A stretch of 64,000 nucleotides of DNA from Patescibacteria group bacterium. GTDB taxonomy: Bacteria > Patescibacteriota > Patescibacteriia > Patescibacteriales > JBAZCA01. The DNA is taken from the NCBI GenBank assembly GCA_041661505.1, contig JBAZUF010000002.1:76201-140200 (forward strand). The letters are read 5' to 3'. The notes beneath the pieces were generated by a model. It searched no databases. It had not been told where the DNA came from and saw only the letters and a program-made list of their open reading frames with translations. Below, piece after piece: positions 6,909 through 21,569 of this stretch; position 1 is the first letter of the stretch; every line of letters begins with the position of its first letter. The position numbers and the translations under genes were made by a program.

Positions 6909-7580
6909 ATGATTAAACTTGTCGCCTTTGACTGGAACGGCACCTTGCTTTCCGATACCCGCGCCTGCTGGGAAGGAGCCAACGAAGAATTAATGGCGGC
7001 TGGCGTAAAGCCGATGAGCCTGCAAAGATACCGGCAGACTTTTACCATTCCTTTCATCGACTGCCTGGTAAAAAACGGGGTGGAGCGAAAGTATGTATTG
7101 AAAAACAGCGAGAAACTATCTAACGCCTTTCATAGCTATTATGAGCCCCGGGCGGCTAAATGCCGGACCCGCGGAGGCGTAAGGGAAGTTCTTGCTTGGT
7201 TGAAAAAAAACCGTATCCAATCCATGATTTATAGTAATCACACTATCGTCGGCATTACCGCCCAGCTTAAAAGATTAAAGATCGGGCATCACATGGACGT
7301 AGTTTTAGCAAACGGAACGAAACAAGGGGCGCTGCATAAAAAAGGTAAAGGGCAAAAATTAAATGATTATGTCAAACGGCATAAGTTAAAACCAAGCGAA
7401 GTAATTTCGGTCGGTGACACAGAAGAAGAAATTGAAATCGGCAAACACTACGGTTATCATACTGTCGCCATAACCGGCGGCTATAATACTATTGCCCGGC
7501 TTAAAAAACATAAACCGGATTTTTTAATCCATAACATGAAAGAGTTGATCGGAATTATTAATAAATTAAATAGAAAATAG
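6909..7580 (+). CDS. HAD-superfamily hydrolase (phosphatase-like)
   Basis: Motif I variant LVAFDWNGTL and late motif VGDTEEEIEIG. Embedded in the pur cluster. Confidence 0.75.
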   Translation: MIKLVAFDWNGTLLSDTRACWEGANEELMAAGVKPMSLQRYRQTFTIPFIDCLVKNGVERKYVLKNSEKLSNAFHSYYEPRAAKCRTRGGVREVLAWLKKNRIQSMIYSNHTIVGITAQLKRLKIGHHMDVVLANGTKQGALHKKGKGQKLNDYVKRHKLKPSEVISVGDTEEEIEIGKHYGYHTVAITGGYNTIARLKKHKPDFLIHNMKELIGIINKLNRK

Positions 7581-7596
7581 AATTTTCAAAAATATT

Positions 7597-8088
7597 ATGA
7601 AACCACTTGTCGGTATATTAATGGGGTCTGATTCTGACTTGGGCGTGATGCAGGAAGCGGCAAAAGTACTGAAAGAATTCGGCGTGGGTTATGAAATAAC
7701 GGTCTGTTCGGCCCATAGGACGCCGGACCGGGCGCATCAGTATGCCGCGACAGCTCATGCCCGCGGTCTGAAAGTTATTATTGCCGGAGCCGGAGGAGCG
7801 GCGCACTTAGCTGGAGTGATTGCGGCTTCAACAGTGTTGCCAGTTATTGGCGTGCCGATCCATTCAAAATTGGATGGCCTTGATTCCTTACTTTCAACAC
7901 TGCAAATGCCGTCCGGCATTCCGGTCGCGACCGTAGCGATCGACGGCGCGAAAAACGCGGGGATACTGGCGGTGGAGATTTTAGCCACTTCAGATGATGG
8001 ACTGACAAAAAAGCTGGTGGAATACAAAAAGAAAATGGCGGACGCGGTAGACATGAAGGCCAAAAATTTGAAAAAAAAGATTAAATAA
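7597..8088 (+). CDS. purE: N5-CAIR mutase (class I PurE-like)
   Basis: 163 aa with GSDSDL and AGAGGAAHLAGV...LPVIGVP motifs. Confidence 0.9.
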   Translation: MKPLVGILMGSDSDLGVMQEAAKVLKEFGVGYEITVCSAHRTPDRAHQYAATAHARGLKVIIAGAGGAAHLAGVIAASTVLPVIGVPIHSKLDGLDSLLSTLQMPSGIPVATVAIDGAKNAGILAVEILATSDDGLTKKLVEYKKKMADAVDMKAKNLKKKIK

Positions 8089-8094
8089 TAATTT

Positions 8095-9210
8095 ATGCAA
8101 AAATCCGAATACGCGAAATCAGGAGTGGATTATACCGTTATGGAGCCGTTTAAGATGGCTATGATTGAAACCGGAAAAAAAACCTTGCACTTTCCCGAGA
8201 AGCGGGGAGTATATATCGTGAAAGACGCTATCCACGCCCACGGCGCGGTTTTCGAATACCGGGGAAAAGACCAGCCGATCTGGTGCAAAACCCAGGAAGA
8301 CTTAGGCAATAAGAACTGGATTGCCGAGTGGATGTATCAAAACACCGGTAAAACTTATTACGATTCGATCGCGATTGACACAGCTCTCATCGTCGTAAAC
8401 GACGTAATTGCCCAGGGCGCTATGCCGGTAGTTTTTAATGACCAGCTCGAAGCGTCGGGAAGCGAATGGTATGGCGACGAGAAACGGGCTAAGGATTTTG
8501 CCGCCGGATTACTAAAAATCTGCGAAGAAGTCGGGATGGCTTTACCGGCCGGCGAATCAGCCAGCTGTAAATATTTAATCAACCCCACTCCTCCGGTTAA
8601 GGAAATTGCGACTTTATCCGGTTCAGTGACCGGAATAATCGCGCCCAGGGAAAATTTAATAACCGGCCGGGACTTAGGGGCCGGAGACCATATTATTGCC
8701 GTTGCCTCTTCGGGCCTGCACGCCAACGGAATTTCCCTGGTCATAAGAAAGGCTCTGGAAATGCCGGAACAATTTTTAACCAAACTGCCTAATGGAAAAA
8801 CCCTTGGCGAGGAAGCTTTGATTCCAACCCGCTCTTACGTTAAGCTAATTGAAACTTTACTGGAAAACAAAGTAAAAATAAACGCCCTGCTTCCGGGCAC
8901 TGGCGACGGCGTCGGGAAAATCGCCTTTGATAAGCGCCCCTTAACTTATCGTCTCCATTCCTGGCTATCGATTCCTCCTTTGATGCAATATTTTCGGGAA
9001 ACTCTGGGTGTGCCGATGAAAGATTGCCTAAAAACTTTTAATTGGGGAGCGGGCTATTATATTTATGCCTCACCTGATCAGATAAAACAGATTTTGGAAA
9101 TCGGAAAAGAAGCCGGATACGAATTAGCTGATGTCGGAGTAGTTGAAGAAGGAAAAAGGCAGGTAATTTTTGAACCGGAAAATATAACTTTAGCGCCGCC
9201 GGGAGAATAA
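8095..9210 (+). CDS. purM: AIR synthase-related protein (divergent PurM)
   Basis: N-terminus YAKSGVDY (compare YKDAGVDI) and PurM-like length. The usual DGVGTK is replaced by QEDLGNK. pur context. Confidence 0.65.
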   Translation: MQKSEYAKSGVDYTVMEPFKMAMIETGKKTLHFPEKRGVYIVKDAIHAHGAVFEYRGKDQPIWCKTQEDLGNKNWIAEWMYQNTGKTYYDSIAIDTALIVVNDVIAQGAMPVVFNDQLEASGSEWYGDEKRAKDFAAGLLKICEEVGMALPAGESASCKYLINPTPPVKEIATLSGSVTGIIAPRENLITGRDLGAGDHIIAVASSGLHANGISLVIRKALEMPEQFLTKLPNGKTLGEEALIPTRSYVKLIETLLENKVKINALLPGTGDGVGKIAFDKRPLTYRLHSWLSIPPLMQYFRETLGVPMKDCLKTFNWGAGYYIYASPDQIKQILEIGKEAGYELADVGVVEEGKRQVIFEPENITLAPPGE

Positions 9211-10247: not shown

Positions 10248-11639
10248 ATGAAATCTTTGCAAAATATTTCACCGGTTGACGGACGCTACAAGAAATACAC
10301 GGAAGCTCTTGCGCCGTATTTCAGCGAATACGCCTTATCAAAATATAAAGTACTGATGGAGTGCGAATATTTAATCGCTTTGTCGGAGACGCCGGGAATA
10401 AAAATGCGCGCCTTTTCCGGGAGCGAAAAAGCGCTCATAAGAAAGCTCTATAATGATTTTAGTCTGGAAGACGCCCAAATTATCAATGACATCGAGCTAA
10501 AAGGCTATAAAAATATTAAAGCTACTAACCACGACTTTAAAGCCATTGAGTATTTTCTAAAAGAAAAACTGGGGAAGACCAGCCTGAAAGATTCGCTCGA
10601 ATGGATTCATTTTGGTTTGACTTCGGAAGACGCGAATAATATCGCTTACGGCTTAATGATTAGCGAGAGTCTGAAAGAGGTGATGATTCCGGCTTTGGAA
10701 AAAGTGATTATAGAGATTAAGGGATTGGTTAGGGCCGGCAAAGACGCTCCGATCCTCGCCCGGACGCACGGCCAGCCGGCATCGCCGACTACCTTTGGGA
10801 AAGAGTTTAAAGTTTTCGAGGCGCGCCTTAAAAGCGTGTTCGATAAAATAAAGAGTCAGCGGGTAATGTCTAAATTAAACGGCGCGACCGGAAACTATAA
10901 TGCCCTGGTAGCGGCTTTCCCGAAAATCGACTGGATTAAATTTTCGCGGAATTTTATCGGGAAGCTAAATAAGCAAAGAAAAACTAACCTGGTAGTAAAT
11001 TTATTTACTACCCAAATCGAATCGCATGACAGTTATGCCGAGCTTTTCAATATGGTGCGGAGGGTGAATACGATATTAATTGATCTGGACCAGGATATTT
11101 GGCGCTATATTTCTGACGGCTGGCTTGGGCAAAAACAAGTGGCCGGAGAAATCGGCTCATCCACTATGCCCCATAAAATCAATCCTATTTTTGTTGAAAA
11201 TAGCGAAGGCAATTTAGGAATGGCTAACGCAATGCTTGATTTTTTTTCCATGAAGCTCCCGATTTCGCGCCTGCAAAGAGACCTTTCCGACTCCACAGTG
11301 CTTCGGAATATCGGCGCGGCCTTTGGGCACTGCCTTATCGGTTATAAATACTTAGGCCGTCAACTGGAACGGATTGTCATAAATAAGGATAAGGCCTTGG
11401 CTGATTTGGATAGCCACCCGGAAGTGATTGCCGAAGCGATCCAAACCATACTTCGGCGCGAAGGGGCGAGCATGCCTTATGAAAAATTAAAAGCTTTGAC
11501 CCGGGGAAAAGAAGTGGCCTTGAAAGATTTTCAAGAATTCATAGACGGCCTCGAAATATCCGGCGAGGTCAAAATTGAATTAAAAAAAATCCGGCCGGAA
11601 AATTATCTCGGGCTGGCGAAAAAATTGTCGAAGATTTAA
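10248..11639 (+). CDS. purB: adenylosuccinate lyase
   Basis: Fumarate-lyase signature GSSTMPHKINP; 463 aa. Confidence 0.95.
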   Translation: MKSLQNISPVDGRYKKYTEALAPYFSEYALSKYKVLMECEYLIALSETPGIKMRAFSGSEKALIRKLYNDFSLEDAQIINDIELKGYKNIKATNHDFKAIEYFLKEKLGKTSLKDSLEWIHFGLTSEDANNIAYGLMISESLKEVMIPALEKVIIEIKGLVRAGKDAPILARTHGQPASPTTFGKEFKVFEARLKSVFDKIKSQRVMSKLNGATGNYNALVAAFPKIDWIKFSRNFIGKLNKQRKTNLVVNLFTTQIESHDSYAELFNMVRRVNTILIDLDQDIWRYISDGWLGQKQVAGEIGSSTMPHKINPIFVENSEGNLGMANAMLDFFSMKLPISRLQRDLSDSTVLRNIGAAFGHCLIGYKYLGRQLERIVINKDKALADLDSHPEVIAEAIQTILRREGASMPYEKLKALTRGKEVALKDFQEFIDGLEISGEVKIELKKIRPENYLGLAKKLSKI

Positions 11640-11780: not shown

Positions 11781-12395
11781 ATGACTTATAAAATATTCAG
11801 GGCGGTCGGTAATCGGTGCGCGGTTATTCTCGGATGCCTGGGTCTTCATCTCTCTGACAGCGAAGCCCTGGAACAGCTTCGCTTAAAAGGCTTCAAAAAA
11901 GTGGAAGTGGACCTTATAAGCCTGGCCCGGCAATGTATTGGCAAAAGCCAATTCGTCCGGGGCGCGAAGATGTGCCTGGCGCCGGAAATCATTGATTGCG
12001 CCAGTTTTACCAAATGGCTTTATGCTCACCTAGGCATTTGGCTGCCGCGGCGTTCAGTCCAGCAGAGGGACTTTGGATTTCCTATCGAGCTCAAATACAT
12101 AGTCGCCAATGACCTGATTTTTACAACCGGCATAAAAAACTATAACAACGGCAATGACGGACACCGGATAGGACACGTCGGTATTGCGACCGGCGAGGGA
12201 ACGATAGTCCACGCCGCAAGTAAAGAGCTAGGAATTATAGAGAGCCCCATCGAGAGCTTTGTAATTGAGGTCAAGTTCCGGGGAATCCGCCGCTATCTGC
12301 CAAAAGGTCTGCCGGTAATTACATTTGAAATTCCACCCGAAATTGAAGTCGAAACTTCTGACGACATAAAGTGGCTTTTGATGCCAGCTTCTTGA
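11781..12395 (+). CDS. NlpC/P60 (C40) family peptidase
   Basis: Catalytic Cys context DCASFTKWLY and His context GHVGIATGEGTIVHA. AAAGGAG lies 5 nt upstream of ATG 11781. Confidence 0.8.
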   Translation: MTYKIFRAVGNRCAVILGCLGLHLSDSEALEQLRLKGFKKVEVDLISLARQCIGKSQFVRGAKMCLAPEIIDCASFTKWLYAHLGIWLPRRSVQQRDFGFPIELKYIVANDLIFTTGIKNYNNGNDGHRIGHVGIATGEGTIVHAASKELGIIESPIESFVIEVKFRGIRRYLPKGLPVITFEIPPEIEVETSDDIKWLLMPAS

Positions 12396-12423
12396 CCGAC
12401 CGTATCAGCAAAAAACCCAATAC

Positions 12424-12452
12424 AAAACGAGGATTTATCACCCTCGTTTTTT
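12424..12452. terminator. bidirectional rho-independent terminator between convergent genes
   Basis: AAAACGAGG-loop-CCTCGTTTT with flanking A and T runs. Confidence 0.7.
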
Positions 12453-12464
12453 CTATCTAATCTA

Positions 12465-13043
12465 TTATTTAGTTATCACTTTATCAATCAGCCCGTACTT
12501 CTTCGCTTCTTCCACGTTCATAAAATTATCCCGGTCCGTATCCTTTTCAATCGTCGCGAGTTTTTGGCCGGTATGGGTAGCTAAAATATTATTCAAGCGG
12601 TCTTTTAATCTTAAAATCCGTTCCGCTCCGATCTTGATATCCGTGGCCTGCCCCTCAATTCCGCCCATGATTTGGTGGATCATAATTTCCGAATTAGGCA
12701 GGGCAAATCTTTTTCCTTTAGCTCCGGCGGCGAGTAGAAACGCACCCATCGAAGCGGCTAAGCCGACACAGATCGTCGAGACATCCGGCTTGATATATTG
12801 CATAGTGTCGTAAATCGCGAGTCCTGACGAAACCGAACCGCCCGGAGAGTTAATATAGAATTTAATTTCCTTTTCCTGGTCTTGGGCGGCTAAAAATAAA
12901 AGCTGGGCGATTACGATATTAGCGACATGGTCGTTAATCGGCTCGCCTAAGAAAATTATCCGGTCTTTTAAAAGCCGGGAATAGATATCATAGGCTCGTT
13001 CGCCATGGGTTGATTTTTCGATTACGGTTGGTATTAATGGCAT
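12465..13043 (-). CDS. clpP: ATP-dependent Clp protease proteolytic subunit
   Basis: 192 aa with a typical ClpP sequence, including [14 protein letters not shown] (active-site Ser). Confidence 0.95.
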
Positions 13044-13319
13044 AATTTTTTCTTAAGATTATCTTAGCTTTAGATTATTAAAAACAAATTAACTGTCCCA
13101 GTAAATACGCAAAAAACCTAAACATTCTTCTTTTAAGACTTTACCTCACCTGCGGCTACTTGTCAAAACTGTCGAAAAATTGTACTAAGAATTGCAAAAA
13201 AAATCATTTTGGTTTATATTAATAGTACAGCTTGAAGTGGCAGCTATTTTATCAGCTGATTTTTTTATAGCAATTTTATAGCGTTCATTCAAATTATATA
13301 TATTCTTACTTTTGGCATT

Positions 13320-13835
13320 ACCTGCCGGATCTTTTCGGCAGTTTGCCCTTGTCGCTGATCGCCCAACGCTCACCTTGAAAGGAGGAGATAGGAGCGGACT
13401 TGGAATTACCACCGACGAATAGGCGATGGCGATAAGGCGTAACAAGGCCTCCAGGTGGAGGCCCGGGGTTTTTGCGGGGCTTTTGTGTTTCACGGATTTA
13501 GGGGGCTGGATTATTTTGAGCCAGCCCCCGCCTACCAAAGAGATGGAGATGACCTATGAAAACGTTCTGGGGAATGCCTTGTGCATTCCAAATCGACTTG
13601 CTGGTGACGCCGCCAATGCTGTGCGTCCCCAACATGCCCGGAAAGACACGCCAGAGCCTACAGCTGGGCCATAGCGCGACCGATCACGACACTCTCAAAC
13701 CCACCAAACTCATGCGGCGGTCCGATGTCGTCATCGCGTTCACCGACGCTTCCGTGGACACCAAAAACATCGCGAATACCTTTAAGATAAAAATGTGCAG
13801 CGGATGCGGCGGGAACAGGCCGGGTCAGATCGGAA
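13320..13835. other. GC-rich, hairpin-dense stretch with no credible ORF (candidate ncRNA or decayed foreign gene)
   Basis: Strong hairpins: CTGCCG-N8-CGGCAG (13322-13342), GGCCTCCA-GG-TGGAGGCC (13446-13463), GGGGGCTGG-N11-CCAGCCCCC (13501-13529). All six frames are broken or give non-protein-like peptides. Confidence 0.5.
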
Positions 13836-14150
13836 ATGAGCGAGCTTTTAAGCTGGTGGAAAAAAAATAAAAAAAGCCGGCAACACCCCTTGGCCCTGGC
13901 CGCGGACTTTCATCAGCGCTTTGAGCTTATTCATCCCTTTTCCGACGGCAATGGCCGGGCCGGACGATTAATCTTTAATTATATCTTACTGCGGTACGGC
14001 TATCCGCCAATTCTCTTTTTATACCAAAACCGGCAATCTTATTTTAGCGCTTTAAGCCAGGCTGACGAAGGAAAAAAAAATAAATGGCACTGGCAAGTAA
14101 TTAAAGTCTACAAAGACAGCGTTAGGTGGCTTCTAAAGGAAATGGAATAA
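13836..14150 (+). CDS. Fic/DOC family protein fragment (core motif present, N-terminal half missing; probable remnant)
   Basis: [12 protein letters not shown] matches HxFx(D/E)GNGRxxR. Only about 25 aa precede it, and the in-frame upstream sequence hits a stop at 13788. Confidence 0.7.
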
Positions 14151-14165
14151 TCTAATTCTTTGCGC

Positions 14166-14194
14166 TTGACATTTATATTACGTTTTGTTATGCT
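14166..14194 (+). promoter_or_regulatory. sigma-70-like promoter giving a probably leaderless abiEi mRNA
   Basis: TTGACA (14166-14171), 17-nt spacer, TATGCT (14189-14194). The ATG lies 7 nt after the -10. Inverted repeat CTGTAC-N6-GTACAG (14193-14210) spans the start codon. Confidence 0.5.
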
Positions 14195-14200
14195 GTACAT

Positions 14201-14779
14201 ATGAGTACAGTAAAAATAAACGTAAAACAAAACCGATTTGCCTTGCTCGCCCGTCTGAATGAGGAGATTTTTCATATTGATGACTTACAAAATTTATGGA
14301 ACATTAGAGAAAAAAATACTCTCCACACTACTCTTAAAAGATATGTCGATCAGGAGCTTTTGTATAGGATTTACCGGGGTTTTTATTCCCTTAAACCGCT
14401 TGATAAAATTGACCCTTATTTATTAGGAATAAAAGCTTTGCACGGTTATGGTTATGTAAGCACGGAAACAATACTGGCTAAAGAGGGAATTATCAGCCAA
14501 AATCTTGATAAAATAACTTTAATAAGCAGCCAGTCAAGACGCTTTTCCCTGGCCGGCCGCAACTACTATTCAAGGAAGCTCGACGATAAATTCTTATTTA
14601 ATCCGGCCGGGCTTCTAGAAAAGGCTGGAGTAAAATCCGCGGCTCTGGAAAGGGCGGTCGCCGATCTTCTTTACTTTAACCCCCGCTTTCATTTTGACGG
14701 AAAAATAATGATTGACTGGAAAAAAGTTAAAAATCTCCAGAAAGAAATCGGCTATCCGCCAACCTCAAAGCGGTATTAG
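14201..14779 (+). CDS. AbiEi-like antitoxin / transcriptional regulator (type IV TA)
   Basis: 192 aa immediately upstream of an AbiEii-type nucleotidyltransferase. N-terminal wHTH-like region as recalled for the AbiEi family. Confidence 0.65.
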   Translation: MSTVKINVKQNRFALLARLNEEIFHIDDLQNLWNIREKNTLHTTLKRYVDQELLYRIYRGFYSLKPLDKIDPYLLGIKALHGYGYVSTETILAKEGIISQNLDKITLISSQSRRFSLAGRNYYSRKLDDKFLFNPAGLLEKAGVKSAALERAVADLLYFNPRFHFDGKIMIDWKKVKNLQKEIGYPPTSKRY

Positions 14780-14815
14780 AGATTTTAATAACGGCCTTCA
14801 TGCCGCTTAAAAAAT

Positions 14816-15571
14816 ATGATTTTACCGAGCTCCAAAGACGCAGTCCATAAAGCCTGGCTTTACCGCCTGCTTTCGGCCATAGCCGAAGATAGCTTTTTAA
14901 CCGGGGCTTTATATTTTAAGGGCGGAACTTGCGCGGCTATGCGCGGGCTCTTGGACCGTTTTTCCATTGACCTGGATTTTGATTTACTGGCGCGGGGAGA
15001 TGAGGCGGTAAAAGTAAGAAAAAATCTGGAAAAAATTTTTCTTAATCTCGGGCTGGAAATAAAAGATAAAAGCCGAAATGTTCCGCAATACTTCTTAAGA
15101 TATCCGGCCGGCGCCGAGGAGAGAAATACTCTTAAAATAGACATAACTACCGATCCGCCGGAAAGTAATAAGTATGAGCCAGTCCGGCTTAACGATATTG
15201 ACCGGATAATGAATTGCCAGACCGTAGAGACAATGTTTGCTAATAAGCTTGTGGCCTTAATGGACCGCTTTGAAAAAAATAACTCTATTGCCGGCCGTGA
15301 TTTATATGATATCCATTATTTTTTTCTCCGCGGTTTCCGTTATAACGATAAAGTTATCGCGGAAAGAAGAAAAACCGGGATTAAACAATTTTTTTCCTCA
15401 CTCATAAGCTTTGTAGAAAAAAATATCAGTCTTACGATTATTGATCAGGATTTAAACGTTTTACTGCCTTACGATAAATTCATTAAAATTAGAAAAAACT
15501 TAAAATCTGAAACGCTTATTTTTCTAAAAGACGAACTTAAGAGATTGGGCGAATCCAAAAATTTATCTTAA
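14816..15571 (+). CDS. AbiEii/AbiGii-family nucleotidyltransferase toxin
   Basis: Motif FKGGTCAAMRGLLDRFSIDLDFDL (GGT...R.S.DLDF). 251 aa. Confidence 0.8.
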   Translation: MILPSSKDAVHKAWLYRLLSAIAEDSFLTGALYFKGGTCAAMRGLLDRFSIDLDFDLLARGDEAVKVRKNLEKIFLNLGLEIKDKSRNVPQYFLRYPAGAEERNTLKIDITTDPPESNKYEPVRLNDIDRIMNCQTVETMFANKLVALMDRFEKNNSIAGRDLYDIHYFFLRGFRYNDKVIAERRKTGIKQFFSSLISFVEKNISLTIIDQDLNVLLPYDKFIKIRKNLKSETLIFLKDELKRLGESKNLS

Positions 15572-17155
15572 TTGCTTAACCATATAACTATCTTTCAGCC
15601 TGTACCCTTGCCTTTTATAATACCCCCTCACCCCTACCCCGGAAATTATCATCATTTTTTTGAACCCACAATTCCGAGCGATTTTTTCCGCTTCCATTAA
15701 CAATTTCTTTCCTAAGCCGGCATGCTGTACCTGGCCTTCTTTGCCGATTTGGGTTAATTCGCCGTAGACATGTAATTCGCGGATCATGGCCGAATTAAAA
15801 ATTCCATTATTCTCGCCCGACAATCTTAACCGGCAAAACCCATAAAGCGTTTTTTTGTCTTTTGAATCAGCGCTTAAAAAATATTCTTCTCCGCCCGAAG
15901 CCTTGTATTTAATAACATTTAATTTCCAGGCTTTTGCCGGCCGCTCTTTAGCTTCCCGACAGCGGATGCAATGGCACTCCACGCCTAAGTCTTTCATAAT
16001 CTGCCGCAAATTAGTAATTTTATTGCCAGCCATGATTGATTCCCCTGGAATGTCGCGGATCAGGCGGATAATACGCACGTAAGGCGGAACAGCTTTTTTG
16101 CAGTCAATGATCAGCTGGCGCAAAACTTTATCCGAATAGGGTTTGTATTTTCCCTGTTTCCACCATTTATATAATAAACTGCCGCGCGTTACCACGGTCG
16201 GGTAAAATTTAATCTGGTCTGGCTGGAATCGCGCGTCGCAAAACAGCCTCTTGAACATTGCTAAATCTTTTTTAGCGGTCGATCCAGGAAGCCCGGGCAT
16301 TAAATGATAAGTTACTTTAAAGCCAAAATCTTTTAGTAGCTTTGTCGCTTTAGCTATTTCCGCGACGCCATGGCCGCGCTTATTTTGTTTTAAAATTTTA
16401 TCATCAATCGCCTGGACGCCAAGCTCCACCCGGGTGCATCCGAGTGCGCGCATCTCCCATAACTCTTTTTCATTTATATAATCTGGCCGGGTTTCTAGGG
16501 TCAGCCCGATAATATTATATCCAGCTTTCTCGTTTTTCTTTTGCTCTTTTTCCAGATCGGCTTTCAGCCTAGATAACTGAAGTTTTGAATTGAATTTTTT
16601 TTCTGTTTTATTTAACGTCTTCTGTCCGCTATATTCATTCGCCGCCCTGAAGCACTCTTTGGTATACCAATATTTGTAGTTTACGGGCAATACGCTCCAG
16701 GTTCCGCCGATAACAATGATCTCAATTTTAGTTGGATTATGTCCGTTGGCTTCCAAAGCGCGTAGGCGCAGCTGAACTTGCAGATAAGGATTATAGTCGC
16801 ACCGGATCGCCCGCATTACGGCTGGTTCATTCGATAGATAGCTTTGGGGGACGTTTTTTTCCGTCGGGCAATAGGCGCATTTACCCGGACAAGGATAAGG
16901 CATAGTTAGAACCGCTACTGGCGCGATCCCGGACATGGTCCTTACCGCCCGTTTACGCAGCAGGCGTTTTAACATGACATGTTTGACTCCGCTATTTCGC
17001 AACTCATTTAATATATCGGAATTTTTTAGTATCGGCATTCCGAACATTTTGGAAATTTTCCTTTTAGCCAGCATTAAATCCGCCTGATTTTTTATATCAG
17101 AATTATCCAGTAGATATTTTACGATTTCCTTTTTATTGGTCTCTGCCTTTGACAT
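15563..17155 (-). CDS. ELP3-like radical SAM / GNAT acetyltransferase (tRNA U34 carboxymethyluridine synthase homologue)
   Basis: CPGKCAYCP (CxxxCxxC radical SAM cluster) plus a C-terminal GNAT region (QHAGLGKKLLMEAEKIA). 530 aa. Overlaps abiEii by 9 nt, convergently. Confidence 0.85.
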   Translation of the reverse strand: MSKAETNKKEIVKYLLDNSDIKNQADLMLAKRKISKMFGMPILKNSDILNELRNSGVKHVMLKRLLRKRAVRTMSGIAPVAVLTMPYPCPGKCAYCPTEKNVPQSYLSNEPAVMRAIRCDYNPYLQVQLRLRALEANGHNPTKIEIIVIGGTWSVLPVNYKYWYTKECFRAANEYSGQKTLNKTEKKFNSKLQLSRLKADLEKEQKKNEKAGYNIIGLTLETRPDYINEKELWEMRALGCTRVELGVQAIDDKILKQNKRGHGVAEIAKATKLLKDFGFKVTYHLMPGLPGSTAKKDLAMFKRLFCDARFQPDQIKFYPTVVTRGSLLYKWWKQGKYKPYSDKVLRQLIIDCKKAVPPYVRIIRLIRDIPGESIMAGNKITNLRQIMKDLGVECHCIRCREAKERPAKAWKLNVIKYKASGGEEYFLSADSKDKKTLYGFCRLRLSGENNGIFNSAMIRELHVYGELTQIGKEGQVQHAGLGKKLLMEAEKIARNCGFKKMMIISGVGVRGYYKRQGYRLKDSYMVKQLR

Positions 17156-21470: not shown

Positions 21471-21569
21471 TGGCTGGGGAGAGGCTCGAACTCTCGACCT
21501 TGGCGTTATGAGTGCCACGCTCCCCGCCCGTACCGAACGGTACGTTCGGGCGGGTAACCAGCTGAGCTA
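21471..21569 (-). pseudogene. aberrant tRNA-Met(CAT)-like copy: 32-nt insertion in the D-loop and no 5' acceptor strand
   Basis: Aligns to the adjacent intact tRNA from position 8 to the 3' end. TCTAAGA replaces GGCTGGG. The insertion lies between GGTTA and GAGC. Confidence 0.75.
21523..21554. repeat. GC-rich palindromic element copy P1
   Basis: CCCGCCCGTACCGAACGGTACGTTCGGGCGGG. A near-identical copy lies at 24773-24805. Confidence 0.85.

Follow-up and report, generated by a model that had tools for sequence, protein, structure and literature searches.

In a 64,000-nucleotide (nt) stretch of a Patescibacteria (candidate phyla radiation, CPR) genome (contig JBAZUF010000002.1, positions 76,201 to 140,200; hereafter, the window; G+C content 44%), we analyzed the region 13044-13835, which separates the start codon of clpP (at 13043, minus strand) from an open reading frame (ORF) with a Fic domain (from 13836, plus strand). 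The order of genes is clpP (minus), the region, a fic fragment, abiEi and abiEii (plus), elp3 (minus), DUF8173 and phosphoglucomutase. A first-pass annotation, made by a model from the letters alone, proposed that the region is either a structured noncoding RNA linked to the neighboring toxin genes or the wreck of an acquired gene that truncated Fic. We consider it likely that the region is instead a promoter, a folded leader and the first ~84 codons of a small gene, specific to the lineage, of the clpP/elp3 interval, that is, a local genomic scar. The features that define this gene are:

13192-13220, plus strand: predicted divergent promoter of the resident unit, TTGCAA-17-TATATT, detected by a consensus scan
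13545-13549, plus strand: Shine-Dalgarno (SD) sequence GGAGA, with the GGAG core at 13545-13548 and 7 nt (13549-13555) to the ATG
13556-13808, plus strand: resident orphan ORF, first ~84 codons, recognized by periodicity, by a HMMER match and as the best of six frames
13800-13835, no strand: junction of the resident ORF and Fic, where the sequence resembles both parents

The G+C content rises from 0.29-0.38 across 13100-13399 to 0.52-0.565 across 13300-13899, which confirms by computation the enrichment after ~13320 that had been judged by eye. Compared with all 300-nt windows (mean 0.44, standard deviation (sd) 0.05), these values are near the top without being unique, and three or four other stretches are similarly G+C-rich. 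The region had been described as the largest gene-free stretch, and it is the longest one without an ORF of at least 80 aa or a tRNA (the next is 587 nt) if mechanical ORFs are discounted. The accompanying claim that it holds no credible gene and yields only short or low-complexity translations did not survive: the plus-strand frame 13556-13870 (104 codons) is periodic, and a homologue begins at the same Met. Beyond ~13808, this frame reads Fic-derived DNA out of frame to a TAA at 13868-13870.

The G+C content of 13556-13808 by codon position is 0.48/0.44/0.73, a spread reached by 0.085% of position shuffles (p ~0.0009). The codon phase is constant from ~13560 to ~13830 and equals that of the plus-strand ORF, and 13320-13560 is without such periodicity. 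A HMMER search of 1.84 billion representative proteins returned two matches only, the window's own gene call and a protein of 158 aa (P0008), in which residues 1-81 are aligned from the same Met with 51% identity (E 4e-12). P0008 is encoded on an ENA contig (L088) and on an identical Logan contig (L089), and its source belongs to related Patescibacteria. Nucleotide conservation between the window and L088 starts at the ATG; both the SD and the ATG are conserved, the SD of L088 being GGAGG, 5 nt before the ATG. In codons 1-19 (MKTFWGMPCAFQI[D/S]LLVTP), synonymous differences per synonymous site (Sd/S) are 10/12, and nonsynonymous differences per nonsynonymous site (Nd/N) are 2/45; the synonymous ones include a TTG/CTA leucine change that is silent on the plus strand only. 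The overall dN/dS of the ORF is ~0.27 and codons 20-52 are nearly neutral; it should be noted that a clear excess of synonymous change is confined to codons 1-29. The G+C content at third codon positions (GC3) is 0.73 for the window ORF and 0.68 for the L088 ORF, compared to 0.49 +/- 0.037 (maximum 0.57) for 42 window ORFs, so that the orphan ORF lies ~6 sd above the genes of the window. Periodicity, the synonymous excess, the conserved start with its SD and the frame that is open in the relative mark 13556-13808 as protein-coding, and we conclude that a lineage-specific gene begins at 13556 and that its first ~84 codons reach to ~13808.

The L088 locus provides the comparison on which the history of the region depends. 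The order there is clpP (minus), P0008 (plus), an elp3-type radical-SAM/GNAT gene (minus), DUF8173 (plus) and phosphoglucomutase, with no fic or abiE within 12.6 kb. Nucleotide identity between the window and L088 is 86% for clpP, 76% for elp3 and 74-86%, in patches, for the region. L088 keeps both divergent promoters, an 11-nt box and the helices H1, P2, H3 and H5, described below; its ORF extends over 158 codons with the same high GC3 throughout, and 235 nt with five strong hairpins (z -5.5, relative to shuffles) follow the ORF and abut the elp3 stop. Synteny thus demonstrates that a related genome carries the complete unit, with leader, ORF and hairpin-rich 3' untranslated region (UTR), and neither fic nor abiE. 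The 3' part of the L088 unit (distal ORF and 3' region) has no match in the window. We read the unit as resident because L088 has it complete without fic/abiE and because the window lacks its 3' half together with the 3' UTR. N-terminal damage to the window elp3 was also considered and was refuted, as both genes share the MSKAE start; the longer L088 elp3 gene call is probably over-extended.

GC3-rich genes produce shadow ORFs on the antisense strand, which is a textbook artefact. The region contains protein-like stretches in its minus-strand frames, and these peptides had been taken for a gene decayed by frameshift, which would run from ~13830 down to ~13320. L088 has an antisense frame of this kind: it shares its wobble positions with the ORF, stays open over 238 codons (7907-8623) and is similar to the minus-strand frame of the window. 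However, such frames are open and seemingly conserved because their wobble positions are shared with the GC3-rich plus-strand ORF. For the first conserved block, the plus-strand frame beats the five other frames; compared to the antisense frame, it has 21/29 vs. 18/28 identities and a BLOSUM score of 121 vs. 88. The similarity stops exactly at the start of the plus-strand ORF, the periodicity in L088 ends at the stop of that ORF and not at the antisense start, and minus-strand coding would have to pass through H5 and H3, which are conserved hairpins. When five frame translations (two plus, three minus) were concatenated into one query, nothing was found among 5.8 billion proteins, a weak result, since the window's own short calls were also not returned. 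A decayed minus-strand gene is therefore hardly credible, and the peptides are the shadow of the sense ORF. They do not differ from the shadow ORFs of other GC3-rich genes: the frame has its third positions in common with the sense ORF, stays open and seems conserved.

The segment 13227-13555 lies between a conserved promoter and a conserved SD with its ATG, and we therefore infer that it is the ~330-nt untranslated leader of the ORF. The TTGCAA/17 nt/TATATT promoter is a suggestion of the first-pass annotation that the consensus scan recovered; in L088 (7618-7646), the hexamers are identical and the spacer is again 17 nt but differs in sequence, as would be expected if the promoter is real, and this conservation identifies 13192-13220 as a predicted divergent plus-strand promoter. 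The elements of the putative leader, together with a hairpin at the beginning of the ORF, are:

13241-13266, plus strand: small 5'-proximal hairpin, followed by U7, -4.5 kcal/mol (weak); GCTGATTTTTTTATAGC is identical in L088
13279-13289, plus strand: 11-nt box TAGCGTTCATT in the A+T-rich part of the leader, 11/11 identical to L088 7710-7720
13322-13341, plus strand: hairpin H1, 8 bp, -11.7 kcal/mol, z -4.9
13345-13439, plus strand: P2 domain, -35.6 kcal/mol, z -3.3
13446-13463, plus strand: hairpin H3, GGCCUCC AGGU GGAGGCC, -13.7 kcal/mol, z -3.5
13461-13482, plus strand: weak hairpin, -9.4 kcal/mol, z -1.3
13501-13529, plus strand: hairpin H5, 9 bp, G+C-rich, -19.3 kcal/mol, z -4.0
13571-13589, plus strand: 7-bp hairpin within codons 6-12, -8.3 kcal/mol, z -4.5

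Folding of 13300-13560 was compared to that of shuffles and gave z -3.5 for the plus strand and z -3.1 for the minus strand; the L088 leader gave z -3.9. Among the stem-loops noticed earlier (at least four, said to be stable), three are strong (H1, H3 and H5), and the fourth is weak, as had been stated. The description of the entire inner 0.5 kb as packed with hairpins does not apply to 13560-13835, which is not unusually structured (plus strand z -0.6). The hairpins and part of the G+C excess come from the leader, and the remainder of the excess comes from the ORF.

Most helices of the leader are shared with L088. The two genomes do not differ in the P2 strands or in the cores of H3 and H5, whereas loops and linkers have diverged. 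H1 occupies the same place in L088 (CUGCCGC-UAGAU-GUGGCAG), with G-C vs. G-U at pair 6 and G-U vs. C-G at pair 7; its loop differs and the hairpin itself is kept. The long-range helix of P2 pairs CCUUGUCGC (13347-13355) with GCGAUAAGG (13429-13437) and encloses a branched interior that varies; L088 has the same two 9-nt strands, spaced by 92 nt there and by 72 nt in the window. The inner helix of P2 is AUCGCC/GGCGAU in the window and ACCGC/GCGGU in L088, with one compensatory exchange, U-A to C-G. The interior of P2 is the most divergent part of the leader and contains a 20-nt indel between the two sequences. The SD-like GAAAGGAGGAG at 13378-13388, previously described as unused, does exist; it lies in this interior, within a predicted stem, and is not conserved in L088. 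The core of H3, GCCUC/GAGGC, and that of H5, GGGCUGG/CCAGCCC, are kept, and the loop of H5 is different. In the window, H3 is followed by CGGGGTTTTT, and its U-rich tail (13464-13487) makes it score terminator-like in a consensus scan; this T-rich run had been correctly noticed after 13446-13463, but it is window-specific and absent from L088.

The box TAGCGTTCATT is complementary to the translation-start region in both genomes, in differing registers: the predicted pairing is with 13549-13556 in the window and with 8001-8009 in L088, and it varies with the end of the folded segment. In the intact unit, the leader may control translation or stability of the ORF mRNA. Two candidate routes can be proposed: (i) the conserved box TAGCGUUCAUU could pair with the start-codon region; (ii) the conserved hairpin 15 nt into the ORF could act instead. 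The stem of the latter (13571-13589) is identical in L088, including three wobble positions, whereas 9 of the 12 other degenerate wobbles in codons 1-19 differ. The position of the leader is that of a cis-regulatory element, with a promoter, a structured segment and then SD and ATG (13545-13558) in the same layout in both genomes. As for an expression platform, the H3 hairpin with its U-run is terminator-like in the window only, and the pairing of the box with the start is predicted for some segment ends. The core of a riboswitch aptamer (conserved junctions or loops with covarying stems) was not found in the two sequences, nor was a conserved fold that sequesters the SD in the window or L088.

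The covariance-model scan that the first-pass annotation had recommended matched no family, either in the region or in its L088 equivalent. Rfam 15 (4227 families, E <= 1) had no match in window 12000-15000, a scan of the whole window returned tRNAs only, and ARAGORN called tRNAs and no tmRNA. In L088 7400-8800, the only hit was a chance-level ncS025 in the 3' region (20 bits vs. a gathering score of 46, E 0.82). A pattern scan of metagenomes for the two P2 strands gave ten matches, all by chance within unrelated genes. A conserved upstream ORF through P2 and H3, suggested by weak periodicity at 13410-13559, was rejected, since the frames differ after H3 and the changes are mostly nonsynonymous. 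As a separate observation, the 12-mer GGCGTAACAAGG is present in the window leader at 13436-13447, between P2 and H3, and in L088 at 8485-8496, in the 3' UTR just past the ORF stop; it is absent from the homologous leader position of L088, and ~0.1 such matches are expected by chance.

If the ORF is regarded as irrelevant, the leader of the window could be a free-standing small RNA of ~230-260 nt that extends from the promoter at 13192-13220 to H3 and the U-tail (13446-13487), perhaps acting on neighbors including Fic/AbiE. The promoter is conserved, 13300-13560 is strongly structured, H3 with its U-rich run is terminator-like, and the downstream ORF is truncated and so probably useless. Conversely, the L088 leader has no U-run and runs into the SD and ATG of an intact ORF; the U-run of the window begins 5 nt past the stem, which is poor terminator geometry; the leader is present in L088 without fic or abiE; and there is no Rfam match and no second copy or target-like complementarity in the window. 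We therefore regard a free-standing small RNA as quite unlikely. The related proposal of a structured noncoding RNA linked to toxin genes was right about a conserved structured RNA at ~13227-13555, but the link does not hold, because the leader occurs in L088 without Fic/AbiE. It is also unlikely, albeit a possibility to keep in mind, that the intact unit is an undescribed RNA-centered element of one Patescibacteria lineage, either a new class of cis-regulatory leader or a dual-function RNA, of which the window copy, its ORF lost, would persist as a promoter-to-H3 small RNA.

A broader possibility is that the G+C-rich unit of ~1 kb, which L088 has intact, is as a whole a large structured noncoding RNA, the 158-codon frame being a by-product. 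Structured RNAs are enriched in long intergenic regions of high G+C content (PMC6429828), and the unit is G+C-rich in an A+T-rich genome. The L088 leader (z -3.9) and the 3' region (z -5.5) are very structured, the protein has no homologues and an AlphaFold confidence score (pLDDT) of 31, and the second conserved block of the ORF is conserved at the nucleotide level without frame preference. On the other hand, shuffles fold as well as the ORF part does (z -0.6 in the window, +0.7 in L088), the 3-base periodicity is confined to the ORF, codons 1-19 have 10 synonymous vs. 2 nonsynonymous differences, including the TTG/CTA leucine, the SD and ATG are conserved, and the frame is open for 158 codons in L088. 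These data make a large noncoding RNA highly improbable, and they favor a coding gene with a structured leader.

The downstream boundary of the resident gene coincides with the beginning of the Fic fragment. The neighboring genes on this side are:

13809-14150, plus strand: Fic 3' fragment, ~residues 199-311 of a ~311-aa relative, callable as a 104-aa ORF from the ATG at 13836
14201-14779, plus strand: abiEi, PADLOC AbiEi E 4e-24, intact
14816-15571, plus strand: abiEii, PADLOC AbiEii E 7e-30, intact
15563-17155, minus strand: elp3, convergent with abiEii

The Fic fragment recognized earlier was confirmed: Pfam Fic matches over profile positions 40-93 of 93 only (E 6.5e-15), so the Fic fold is not complete, and the core motif HPFx[D/E]GNGRxxR is present in 13836-14150. 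For the full-length protein, we used a 311-aa relative reconstructed from another contig (L006, 122-1057; ENA ERZ27253369), the closest full-length relative, itself a copy with an in-frame TAA after ..NAIEGSKLS. A tblastn alignment with this protein begins with residue 199 at 13809 (75% identity), and residues 1-198 left no trace in any frame of 13000-13808. Similarity of the orphan ORF to L088 (GCGGATGCG, CCGG..ATCGGAA) can be traced to ~13835. The breakpoint would thus fall within 13800-13835, possibly at a short stretch that resembles both parents. Past the junction, the orphan-ORF frame reads 20-odd codons of Fic DNA out of frame. Other close Fic relatives (including P0005 and P0006) are called as pieces of 86-148 aa, their neighbors differ and none is accompanied by AbiE; fragmentation seems to be common for this Fic subfamily in Patescibacteria assemblies. 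A run of A8, T and A7 (13860-13875) marks the end of the chimeric ORF, and the loss of one A from A8, e.g., by transcriptional slippage, would fuse the orphan-ORF frame with the Fic frame; this is probably coincidental, because relatives encode WW(K/N)KNKK there.

A G+C-rich piece that abuts the Fic breakpoint, has a GC3 of 0.73 (~6 sd above the window genes) and has hardly any homologues could be a wrecked gene that had been acquired horizontally and had truncated a resident fic on arrival. This reading is very unlikely. L088 has the leader and the ORF at the same locus, with a divergence like that of the flanks (~74% vs. 76-86% identity) and no fic, and its version is complete, including the 3' half that is absent from the window. 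The compositional outliers on the low side are abiEi and abiEii, with a GC3 of 0.40, the lowest of the 42 window ORFs. We found no inverted or direct terminal repeats and no transposon signs, the flanking repeats being only 10-16 nt and imperfect, or located in A+T-rich sequence; there was no transposase similarity in the Pfam six-frame pieces or in the search of 5.8 billion proteins, plasmids and phages had no match to 13300-13900 by blastn in its "distant" mode, and the window contains no second copy of the region. What remains of the wreck proposal is a truncated gene fused to the Fic fragment; the gene is on the plus strand and is resident by synteny.

A frameshifted match to a known protein, which would have indicated a simple pseudogene, was not found, and the sole homologue is the uncharacterized 158-aa ORF. 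Pfam had no match to six-frame pieces of the region; Pfam, NCBIfam, PADLOC, PHROGs and PDB returned nothing significant for P0008 or the window ORF; and P0008 returned only itself among 5.8 billion proteins. The G+C-rich region does not belong to AbiE, as leader and ORF occur in L088 without abiE. The region is not part of the Fic/AbiE systems, is not a remnant of an insertion sequence and is not a pseudogene of a characterized protein.

We propose the following history. The segment 13192-13808 would be the resident unit, with its promoter, ~330-nt structured 5' UTR and orphan ORF, and an incoming block of fic (3' fragment), abiEi and abiEii would have replaced this unit from about codon 85-93 to the elp3 stop. 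The direction of the event, with fic-abiE as the newcomer, is suggested by the comparison of the two loci. The fic gene may have been 5'-truncated before its arrival, or truncated in the same event. After the replacement, a chimeric frame of 104 codons and a Fic ORF lacking its head would have remained. Most likely, the resident gene is now dead or dying, a stump that is transcribed but dead as a protein: its promoter and leader may still be transcribed, and H3 with the U-rich tail, which the window may have acquired or kept, would stop most transcripts before the ORF.

Several observations weigh against a coding gene with a regulatory leader. The pairing of the box with the start occurs in different registers in the two genomes and is lost with other segment ends, and an unconserved P2 interior does not suit a ligand-binding aptamer. 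Paired columns are barely more conserved than unpaired ones, with 16 of 219 circular shifts equaling the observed value. The unit is present in two lineages only, and most of its conserved stems are invariant rather than covarying. In these A+T-leaning genomes, both lineages keep the high GC3 despite saturation at synonymous sites. Neither a family nor a structure matches the protein, and the AlphaFold2 model of P0008, based on a two-sequence alignment, is uninformative (pLDDT 31). The second conserved block (MRRSD.VIAF; ATGCGGCGGTCCGATG.CGTCATCGC) shows no reading-frame preference. This block has zero synonymous changes over 8 codons, which suggests constraint at the nucleic-acid level. In the same block, L088 has a perfect 14-nt palindrome at ~8176-8189 (CGATGACGTCATCG), and the window has it with one mismatch at 13723-13736 (CGATGTCGTCATCG).

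The unit appears to have a narrow distribution. Two other contigs of the same species have the same arrangement and are 100% identical across the region, so they are uninformative on constraint. None of the 80 closest ClpP loci from 185,579 GTDB species has elp3 nearby, and blastn, tblastn and nhmmer searches of these 80 loci with the region and the L088 unit found no similarity. This suggests that the unit and its neighborhood are specific to a narrow, sparsely sampled lineage. ORF-based searches for related loci in GTDB genomes, JGI metagenomes and viral contigs, collections that exclude the window itself, found no relative, and in both genomes ClpP and Elp3 each form a singleton 90% cluster, with no closer relatives within reach.

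On the clpP side, the remaining features of the region are:

13044-13137, minus strand: probable clpP 5' UTR, from the predicted -10 box of clpP to its start, placed by the position of the promoter
13138-13166, minus strand: clpP promoter-like site TTGACA-17-TAAAGT, 10/12 consensus matches

In L088, both hexamers and the 17-nt spacing of this promoter are kept (tgtcaa 7587-7592, acttta 7564-7569), and ~34 nt immediately upstream of clpP can be aligned; we assign 13044-13166 (minus strand) to the promoter of clpP and its probable 5' UTR. Beyond clpP, on its other flank, L088 (5813-6807) has a nucleotidyltransferase gene (NTP_transf_2/Polbeta) with a small partner, and the window has an NlpC/P60 gene; the flanks of clpP seem to be a hotspot for small insertions of the toxin-antitoxin type in this lineage.

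Further observations concern the abiE genes and two other places in the window. The abiEii stop (15569-15571) lies inside the final elp3 codons (elp3 stop 15563-15565), a 9-nt overlap including the stop codons, which leaves no room for a terminator; L088 has its 235-nt hairpin-rich spacer in that position. A promoter-like site of abiEi (TTGACA-17-TATGCT with an extended TG; 14166-14231) overlaps a 27-nt inverted repeat (14172-14198/14205-14231) that spans the abiEi start and looks like an autoregulatory operator. In purB (10248-11639), all 90 of the 90 differences over 9.3 kb from a same-species ENA contig (L003) fall in 10708-11393 (~690 nt), a patch that is ~13% divergent with the remainder of the 9.3 kb identical, and that looks like a short imported recombination tract. 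At 21471-21528 (minus strand), next to tRNA-Met and tRNA-Arg, there is a borderline 58-nt Rfam tRNA match (29.3 bits vs. a gathering score of 29) for which ARAGORN makes no call; this match may be what is left of a truncated tRNA.

The result is ordinary but cleanly resolved. The G+C-rich hairpin cluster was a false lead as a toxin-linked RNA or a foreign wreck, and is most likely a stump left by a resident gene together with its leader. It allows the fic-abiE block to be dated as putative incoming DNA at the clpP-elp3 locus, and it is a case in which a GC3-rich ORF creates convincing antisense "pseudogene" peptides.

Compared with the defense islets that combine Fic/Doc with AbiE (AbiEi/AbiEii), the neighboring block has the Fic core motif, intact AbiEi-AbiEii and its own promoter with inverted repeats; the Fic of the window is without its first ~198 residues, and the leader/ORF unit, which occurs alone in L088, is not part of such islets. 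A closer comparison is with the structured leaders and riboswitch-like regulators that were recovered by screening long G+C-rich intergenic regions (GC-IGRs) of A+T-rich genomes (PMC6429828, PMC8632094). Like them, the region is a G+C-rich island in an A+T-rich intergenic region, its stable helices are kept in a relative, and it lies between a promoter and SD/ATG, with a hairpin that may be a terminator in one genome of the two. Unlike them, it has no Rfam match, its multi-branch interior, the expected site of a ligand pocket, is the least conserved part, its U-run is not conserved, and its two representatives give no covariation support. The ORF resembles the small ORFan proteins of Patescibacteria/CPR in being short and without a Pfam, NCBIfam, PHROG, PADLOC or PDB match, and in being present in two lineages among billions of proteins. 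It differs from these ORFans in a GC3 far above that of host genes in both lineages, in the very strong conservation of the first 19 residues next to an almost neutral middle, and in the long structured UTRs on both sides. The novelty is limited to this uncharacterized leader-plus-ORFan unit, so far seen in two lineages of Patescibacteria, which is a small and testable candidate.

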